From Escherichia coli (GTDB lineage: Bacteria > Pseudomonadota > Gammaproteobacteria > Enterobacterales > Enterobacteriaceae), in NCBI RefSeq assembly GCF_030013205.1, contig NZ_CP122648.1: DNA of 64,000 nt; one strand, 5' to 3'. The position numbers were made by a program. Each line of letters begins with the position of its first letter. Positions within the stretch are counted from its first letter, which is position 1. This document shows positions 43,101 through 44,077 of this stretch, one piece after another.

Positions 43101-44077
43101 GGCTACGGTCAATGGGAATACAATATTCAGGCAAACAACACTGAATCTTCAAAAAACCAGTCATGGACCCGTCTGGCATTTGCCGGGCTGAAATTTGCAG
43201 ATTACGGTTCTTTCGATTACGGACGTAATTATGGCGTAATGTACGACATCGAAGGCTGGACCGATATGCTGCCTGAATTTGGCGGTGACTCTTATACCAA
43301 TGCAGACAACTTTATGACTGGTCGTGCCAACGGCGTCGCGACTTATCGTAATACTGATTTCTTCGGTCTGGTAAATGGTCTGAACTTCGCGGTGCAGTAT
43401 CAAGGTAACAACGAAGGTGCCAGTAATGGTCAGGAAGGCACCAACAACGGACGTGATGTTCGCCATGAAAATGGTGACGGCTGGGGTCTTTCCACAACAT
43501 ATGATTTAGGCATGGGCTTTAGCGCTGGTGCGGCATACACCTCATATGACCGCACCAATGACCAGGTTAACCATACTGCGGCGGGTGGTGATAAAGCAGA
43601 CGCGTGGACTGCTGGGCTAAAATACGATGCTAACAATATTTACCTGGCAACCATGTATTCAGAAACGCGTAATATGACCCCGTTTGGCGACAGCGATTAT
43701 GCTGTTGCAAACAAAACCCAGAACTTTGAAGTCACTGCACAGTACCAGTTTGATTTTGGTCTGCGTCCGGCAGTCTCTTTCCTGATGTCTAAAGGCCGTG
43801 ACCTGCACGCTGCCGGTGGTGCAGACAACCCGGCAGGTGTTGATGATAAAGATCTTGTTAAATACGCCGATGTTGGCGCGACTTACTATTTCAATAAAAA
43901 CATGTCCACTTATGTTGACTATAAAATCAACCTGTTGGATTAAGATGACAGCTTCTACGCTGCCAACGGCATCTCTACCGATGATATTGTCGCTTTAGGT
44001 CTGGTTTATCAGTTCTAAATCCTCCTGCCCGCTGTTATGGCGGGCTTTTTCTGCTTATTCTTCCTCCTTTGATCTAA

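Follow-up and report, generated by a model that had tools for sequence, protein, structure and literature searches.

The window analysed here, a stretch of 64,000 nucleotides of Escherichia coli DNA (contig NZ_CP122648.1), carries the porin gene ompN in a neighbourhood composed of nifJ/ydbK, an IS1 element, ompN, uspF, ttcA and dbpA, with the small RNA gene micC lying upstream of ompN on the opposite strand. OmpN of E. coli K-12 is the product of the same gene in the same context (nifJ/ydbK - micC - ompN - uspF - ttcA), and the conserved arrangement of ydbK/nifJ, micC, ompN and uspF, together with near-identity to named ompN genes, identifies the locus as the ompN orthologue. The 1,176 bp comprising the whole gene and its terminator have exact counterparts (100% identity) in seven complete RefSeq genomes of E. 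coli; in about 5,350 further genomes ompN is 95-99% identical, and 5,390 genomes have a match that spans 80% or more of the query.

According to the ORF list, the ompN frame (42885..43943, plus strand) ends after 352 codons at a TAA, as an earlier note on this DNA had read it. Codons 1-21 (42885-42947, plus strand) encode the signal peptide, given that mature porin chains in the PDB align from query residue 22. The TAA (43941..43943, plus strand) is a premature ochre codon, and it constitutes the sole difference from the ompN alleles of O139:H1 strain W13-16, EC556 and ETEC4068. Alignment to other E. coli ompN alleles had been suggested as a check; over the 1,176 bp, only position 43941 distinguishes the window (T) from these intact sisters (G), the causal substitution being G to T, which changes Glu353 from GAA to TAA. 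The proposal that a single base at 43941 would restore a 377-codon gene has its natural counterpart in the otherwise identical alleles of W13-16 and EC556, where G at this position gives an ORF of exactly that length. The intact sister protein of 377 aa, found in W13-16, EC556 and ETEC4068, is WP_063085886.1.

Beyond the premature stop the frame reads DDSFYAANGISTDDIVALGLVYQF (43944-44015) and reaches a second TAA at 44016-44018, so translation recovers the 24 in-frame sense codons that had been described. This orphaned 3' remainder of ompN, including the ancestral stop, occupies 43944..44018 on the plus strand. The loss had been put at 24 residues; it amounts to 25, because codon 353 is itself the mutated one, and Glu353 is missing along with the 24 codons downstream. 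The strong terminator described 3' of the second stop was found by a terminator scan and by RNA folding (44027..44052, plus strand). It consists of a hairpin at 44027-44045 with 8 pairs, 6 of them G-C, directly followed by the T-run TTTTTCTGCT; the fold has an energy of -13.7 kcal/mol (z = -2.67 against shuffled sequences). This intrinsic terminator is unaltered by the nonsense mutation. The space between ompN and uspF is reported to encode EcsR1, an sRNA of 126 nt whose 3' end adjoins ompN (PMC4350180), and the hairpin at 44027-44045 probably also ends EcsR1 on the opposite strand. No Rfam family was matched in this intergenic region (44019-44158).

By sequence score, the encoded product belongs to the general porin family. 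NCBIfam model NF007841 (OmpC subfamily, cut-off 484) gives 554.9 bits for the truncated product and 587.4 bits for the restored protein, the former covering only profile positions 1-344 of 368; scores fall under the PhoE and OmpF equivalog cut-offs, as expected for OmpN. The closest solved structure by sequence is OmpK37 (6v78, E = 7e-179), the OmpN orthologue of Klebsiella pneumoniae, which shows 76% identity over the aligned structure and aligns with the query from end to end. Among the matched solved porin sequences, 48 of 51 align through the last residue of the query.

For structural analysis, 150 representatives were gathered at the 50%-identity cluster level, and the 81 of full-length size were aligned with the restored 377-aa OmpN. 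AlphaFold2 was run on this alignment, and secondary structure was assigned by DSSP. The model of the restored protein is a full barrel (mean pLDDT 91.3, pTM 0.87), and its best solved match is again OmpK37 6v78, with a target-normalised TM score of 0.94. In the model, strand 15 comprises residues 340-349 (coding sequence 43902..43931, plus strand), the helix of loop L8 residues 356-360, and strand 16 residues 368-376 (coding part 43986-44012, plus strand, ending in Y-Q-F). The stop falls three residues past strand 15, which is the last barrel strand kept, so that 15 strands are left and the truncated product ends in ...YKINLLD, with Y-Q-F located 24 codons past the stop. The model thus places most of L8 and all of strand 16 within the 25 C-terminal residues lost, in agreement with the earlier view that the terminal beta-strand and the C-terminal Y-Q-F beta-signal are removed. 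OmpN of K-12 and OmpK37 form a 16-strand barrel, whereas the allele described here stops at codon 353, without L8 and strand 16, and hence would be unable to form a barrel of this type.

The missing end is the part of the protein that homologues retain. The full-length-size representatives (83 of 330-430 aa, spanning 33-61% identity) end in F in 76 cases and in W in one, mostly as Y-x-F. Of the six exceptions, four keep the strand, ending in L or carrying one or two residues after the F, and the remaining two, the sole representatives without the terminal strand, have obviously frameshifted tails. In an alignment of 82 diverse homologues, conservation of Y375 and of F377 reaches 90% or more. 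A homologue that naturally ends at this position had been named as something that would speak against truncation; none of the 83 representatives ends near residue 352, and local alignments that stop near residues 352-359 belong to proteins that run on to a terminal F. The 352-aa product therefore lacks both the sixteenth strand of a general porin and the C-terminal aromatic beta-signal (Y-x-F).

These features suggest that ompN, a quiescent general porin gene, has very likely been inactivated by one clade-specific G to T substitution at 43941, and that the 352-aa product is very probably not assembled and probably non-functional. The signal peptide is kept, and so export is expected: the 352-residue precursor would be passed through Sec and the signal peptide cleaved. 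Without the strand that carries the C-terminal beta-signal, BamA/BamD would be unable to template the product, and a sheet of 15 strands would neither close a 16-strand barrel nor form trimers. The product would then stay in the periplasm and be degraded, presumably by DegP; it would also lack the C-terminal YxF that activates DegS. No polar effect is expected, since 75 nt separate the mutation from the normal stop downstream and the gene is followed by its own terminator. Recognition of the C-terminal aromatic beta-signal by the BAM complex, with templating on strand 1 of BamA, is described in the literature (PMC7383365; PMC3706956).

A working porin might still be made if the TAA were read through or suppressed, or if the 15-strand product were assembled with an N-terminal half-strand compensating for the one that is missing. 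The 24 downstream codons are intact and in frame, as if in use, and in the AlphaFold2 model a short N-terminal strand (residues 22-27) does adjoin strand 16. Intact downstream codons are equally expected for a very recent mutation, and since the intact sister allele has zero other differences over 1,176 bp, they are uninformative with regard to selection. UAA is the most efficient stop codon in E. coli, and there is no suppressor tRNA in the 64-kb window, which contains zero tRNA genes. Assembly of a 15-strand product is difficult to reconcile with the C-terminal aromatic residue of 77 of the 83 homologues and with the lack of any that ends naturally near residue 352. Continued production of a functional porin is thus very improbable, and loss of function remains the preferred reading.

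Truncated porins have been encountered before, both as engineered mutants and as natural alleles. C-terminal mutants of PhoE studied by Struyve, de Cock, Bosch and Tommassen reportedly established that assembly depends on the terminal Phe and on the last membrane-spanning segment, and PhoE lacking the terminal Phe alone is said to show reduced assembly that is not fully abolished at low expression. The ompN allele loses the whole strand and is thus more severely affected than PhoE without its terminal Phe; the PhoE mutants were engineered and assayed experimentally, whereas the ompN allele is a natural one. Porins without the C-terminal Phe or the last strand are exported, but are inserted poorly or not at all in the outer membrane (PMC3706956; PMC7383365). 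The closest precedent is the nmpC (ompD) pseudogene of K-12, likewise a non-essential, silent porin gene without its C-terminal end. In nmpC the 3' end was removed by an IS5 insertion and is gone, whereas the 3' end of ompN is still present here, cut off by a point nonsense mutation that one base could revert. The C-terminal deletion of the silent nmpC gene in K-12 is documented (PMC2808357; PMC7383365 citing Prilipov et al. 1998).

The stop codon is rare among E. coli genomes. Of 5,426 complete genomes, 7 have T at 43941, as against 5,375 with G. An exact 61-mer around the stop likewise recovered 7 of the 5,426. For a more specific search, a 33-mer was placed such that every 28-base megablast seed includes the T, and a control 33-mer carried the G; the former matched only the same 7 genomes and the latter 5,375, of which 5,373 were exact, leaving no sign of a recurrent or independent origin elsewhere among the 5,426. 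The carriers are K_EC180, ETEC1748, ETEC4067, ETEC4069, ETEC4070, ETEC4071 and ETEC4079. All are pig isolates, K_EC180 from South Korea and ETEC1748 and ETEC4079 from Belgium, the Belgian origin having been read from the records of these two among the six ETEC carriers. In a large protein collection (NCBI and Logan assemblies) 22 contigs encode the exact 352-aa product, compared with 129 for the intact sister protein. The 90%-identity cluster that contains the truncated product has 1,670 members, of which every listed one falls short of 377 aa; among those with names, most bear the label 'partial'. The T allele is restricted to a small set of pathogenic E. coli from pigs, of Stx2e/ETEC type and related to O139:H1.

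Across 8,176 bp of comparison, the window and ETEC4079 have the same sequence; relative to K_EC180, the window shows a single SNP together with a few homopolymer indels, located at 474, 51994 and 53268. The indels in K_EC180 demonstrate that long-read assemblies in this clade do hold errors, and one could ask whether the stop is another, the true base at 43941 being G and the gene intact. The base is substituted, not inserted or deleted, at a site that is not part of a homopolymer, and the same T is present in 7 independent complete genomes from two countries and different projects as well as on the 22 contigs. For practical purposes this excludes a sequencing or assembly error, whose probability we regard as negligible. 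The same data indicate that the mutation is genuine and of single origin.

Several other features of the window are recorded here for completeness. ynbD (5735-7125, minus strand) is split into overlapping ORFs at 5735-6187 and 6130-7125, and the identical sequence in K_EC180 is labelled 'frameshifted' by PGAP; the split reflects either a further pseudogene or an assembly error common to both. A region at 50933-53474 contains a DHA2-family MFS efflux permease that is split in two (50933-51643 and 51592-52446, minus strand) and its HlyD-family partner (52443-53474, minus strand), which is intact in the window; in K_EC180 both are frameshifted, in part through its homopolymer differences from the window at 51994 and 53268. 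ttcA (44769-45704) is intact. In ETEC1748, which carries T, and in O139:H1 W13-16, which carries G, identity breaks at the equivalent of window position 44819 and prophage tail-fibre genes follow, so that the ttcA (Rac-type) attachment site is occupied in some members of the clade with either ompN allele. Complete Rfam matches were obtained for the sRNAs FnrS (47471-47588, minus strand, 134.8 bits) and McaS (54454-54549, plus strand, 112.8 bits), whose genes are ordinary E. coli features.

The other lesion of the locus is the IS1 element (41885..42652, minus strand), which has inserted between micC and ompN at a distance of 232 bp upstream of the ATG of ompN. It is 768 bp long, begins with GGTAATGACTCC and ends with GGCAGCATCACC as terminal inverted repeats, and encodes insA and insB, annotated by PGAP as 'IS1 family transposase, programmed frameshift' (insA/insB'). 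Direct reading and a script both identified a 9-bp target-site duplication, TAACCCGCG, on the left (41876..41884) and right (42653-42661) of the element. EC556 retains the empty site with TAACCCGCG in a single copy; its sequence equals the window minus IS1 and one copy of the duplication, with 0 mismatches over 374 bp.

The micC gene (41767..41882, minus strand; Rfam RF00121) had been described as hit by IS1. The element separates the gene from its promoter and does not strike the RNA. The Rfam match is complete and not truncated (107.8 bits against a gathering score of 90, model positions 1-123 of 123), and the micC terminator with its U-run was found by the terminator scan at 41804-41781 on the minus strand. 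The 5' end of K-12 MicC, which we take to be GUUAUAUGCC, places the +1 of micC at 41879, so that by this placement IS1 starts 5 bp upstream of it. Disruption of MicC, an RNA of 109 nt (PMC5745476), by the element was accordingly rejected. The RNA is uninterrupted and the promoter is displaced, the native promoter now being 777 bp away, past IS1. A consensus scan of 41700-42100 revealed no sigma-70-like replacement promoter for micC, which constitutes weak negative evidence. The statement that both halves of the micC/ompN pair are altered is therefore correct in effect, provided that the change in micC is understood as a displaced promoter next to an intact RNA. The displaced promoter may affect the production of MicC and, with it, the repression of OmpC. 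ETEC4068 carries an additional element, IS200C, which sits between nifJ and micC where the micC terminator has its 3' end (about 1680-2390 of its locus, equivalent to window positions ~41770-41775); with it, the independent lesions around micC/ompN in the lineage number three.

The junction of IS1 and micC is found in 14 complete pig-derived genomes, of which 7 have TAA and 7 have GAA in ompN. With the empty site and GAA in EC556, three states of the locus are represented, and their distribution implies the order empty/GAA, then IS1/GAA, then IS1/TAA. By this comparison, the IS1 insertion is older than the stop codon. SoxS reportedly co-regulates ydbK/nifJ and ompN (Fabrega et al. 2012). It may be speculated that IS1, situated between them, had earlier lowered the usefulness of ompN.

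The order of events also raises the question of why the mutation spread, as distinct from what it is. Loss of OmpN might have been adaptive in pig pathogens once IS1 had uncoupled micC and ompN, through evasion of phage, colicins or antibodies or through reduced entry of antibiotics. Two successive lesions in one small regulatory module of one lineage, with the IS200C adjoining micC in ETEC4068 as a third, would fit such a scenario, and porin loss is a common adaptive route (PMC5745476). Against this, the stop has a single origin and no recurrence, being present in 7 of the 5,382 genomes in which the site could be read, and ompN is still intact in half of the sister genomes that carry IS1. Chromosome records of the lineage contain 11-21 IS1 matches each, so that IS hits are frequent background events. 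OmpN is quiescent, being repressed by H-NS and sigma-E (PMC5745476), and is undetectable in ordinary conditions (PMC5745476; PMC7383365); plasmid-borne OmpN failed to restore beta-lactam susceptibility to a porin-less strain (PMC5745476). Low expression and the lack of a beta-lactam effect leave little selective leverage, and an adaptive loss seems improbable. We consider it quite improbable, too, that the insertion near micC and the subsequent stop in ompN represent a stepwise, selected dismantling of a micC/ompN envelope-stress module in the pig-adapted Stx2e/ETEC lineage; if true, this would alter the control of OmpC, through loss of MicC repression, besides removing OmpN. Since ompN is silenced by H-NS and barely expressed, near-neutral loss by drift is the simplest explanation. 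The phenotypic cost is probably small, and the loss is most likely a nearly neutral case of gene decay.

With an intact allele that differs solely by the base that makes the stop, and the T reproduced in seven assemblies, the allele can be classed as a nonsense pseudogene. This is also the best filing for it, because the truncated product lacks the 16-strand barrel and the C-terminal beta-signal. The status is already known from RefSeq/PGAP annotation, which labels ompN a pseudogene with "internal stop" in the T carriers K_EC180, ETEC1748 and ETEC4079; it is an ordinary, clade-specific case. A literature search for ompN pseudogenes in porcine strains brought up only the genome announcement of K_EC180 and no account of this allele.

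Beyond annotation the finding has little importance, and the predicted effect follows textbook biogenesis of outer membrane proteins. The T allele is usable as a phylogenetic marker of the sub-clade, and it provides a natural allele for studying how a porin without its beta-signal strand is handled. For the organism, it very likely means that OmpN, an accessory porin, was lost from a small clade of pathogenic E. coli of pigs via one reversible base change, and that this loss came after IS1 had disturbed the adjacent micC promoter.
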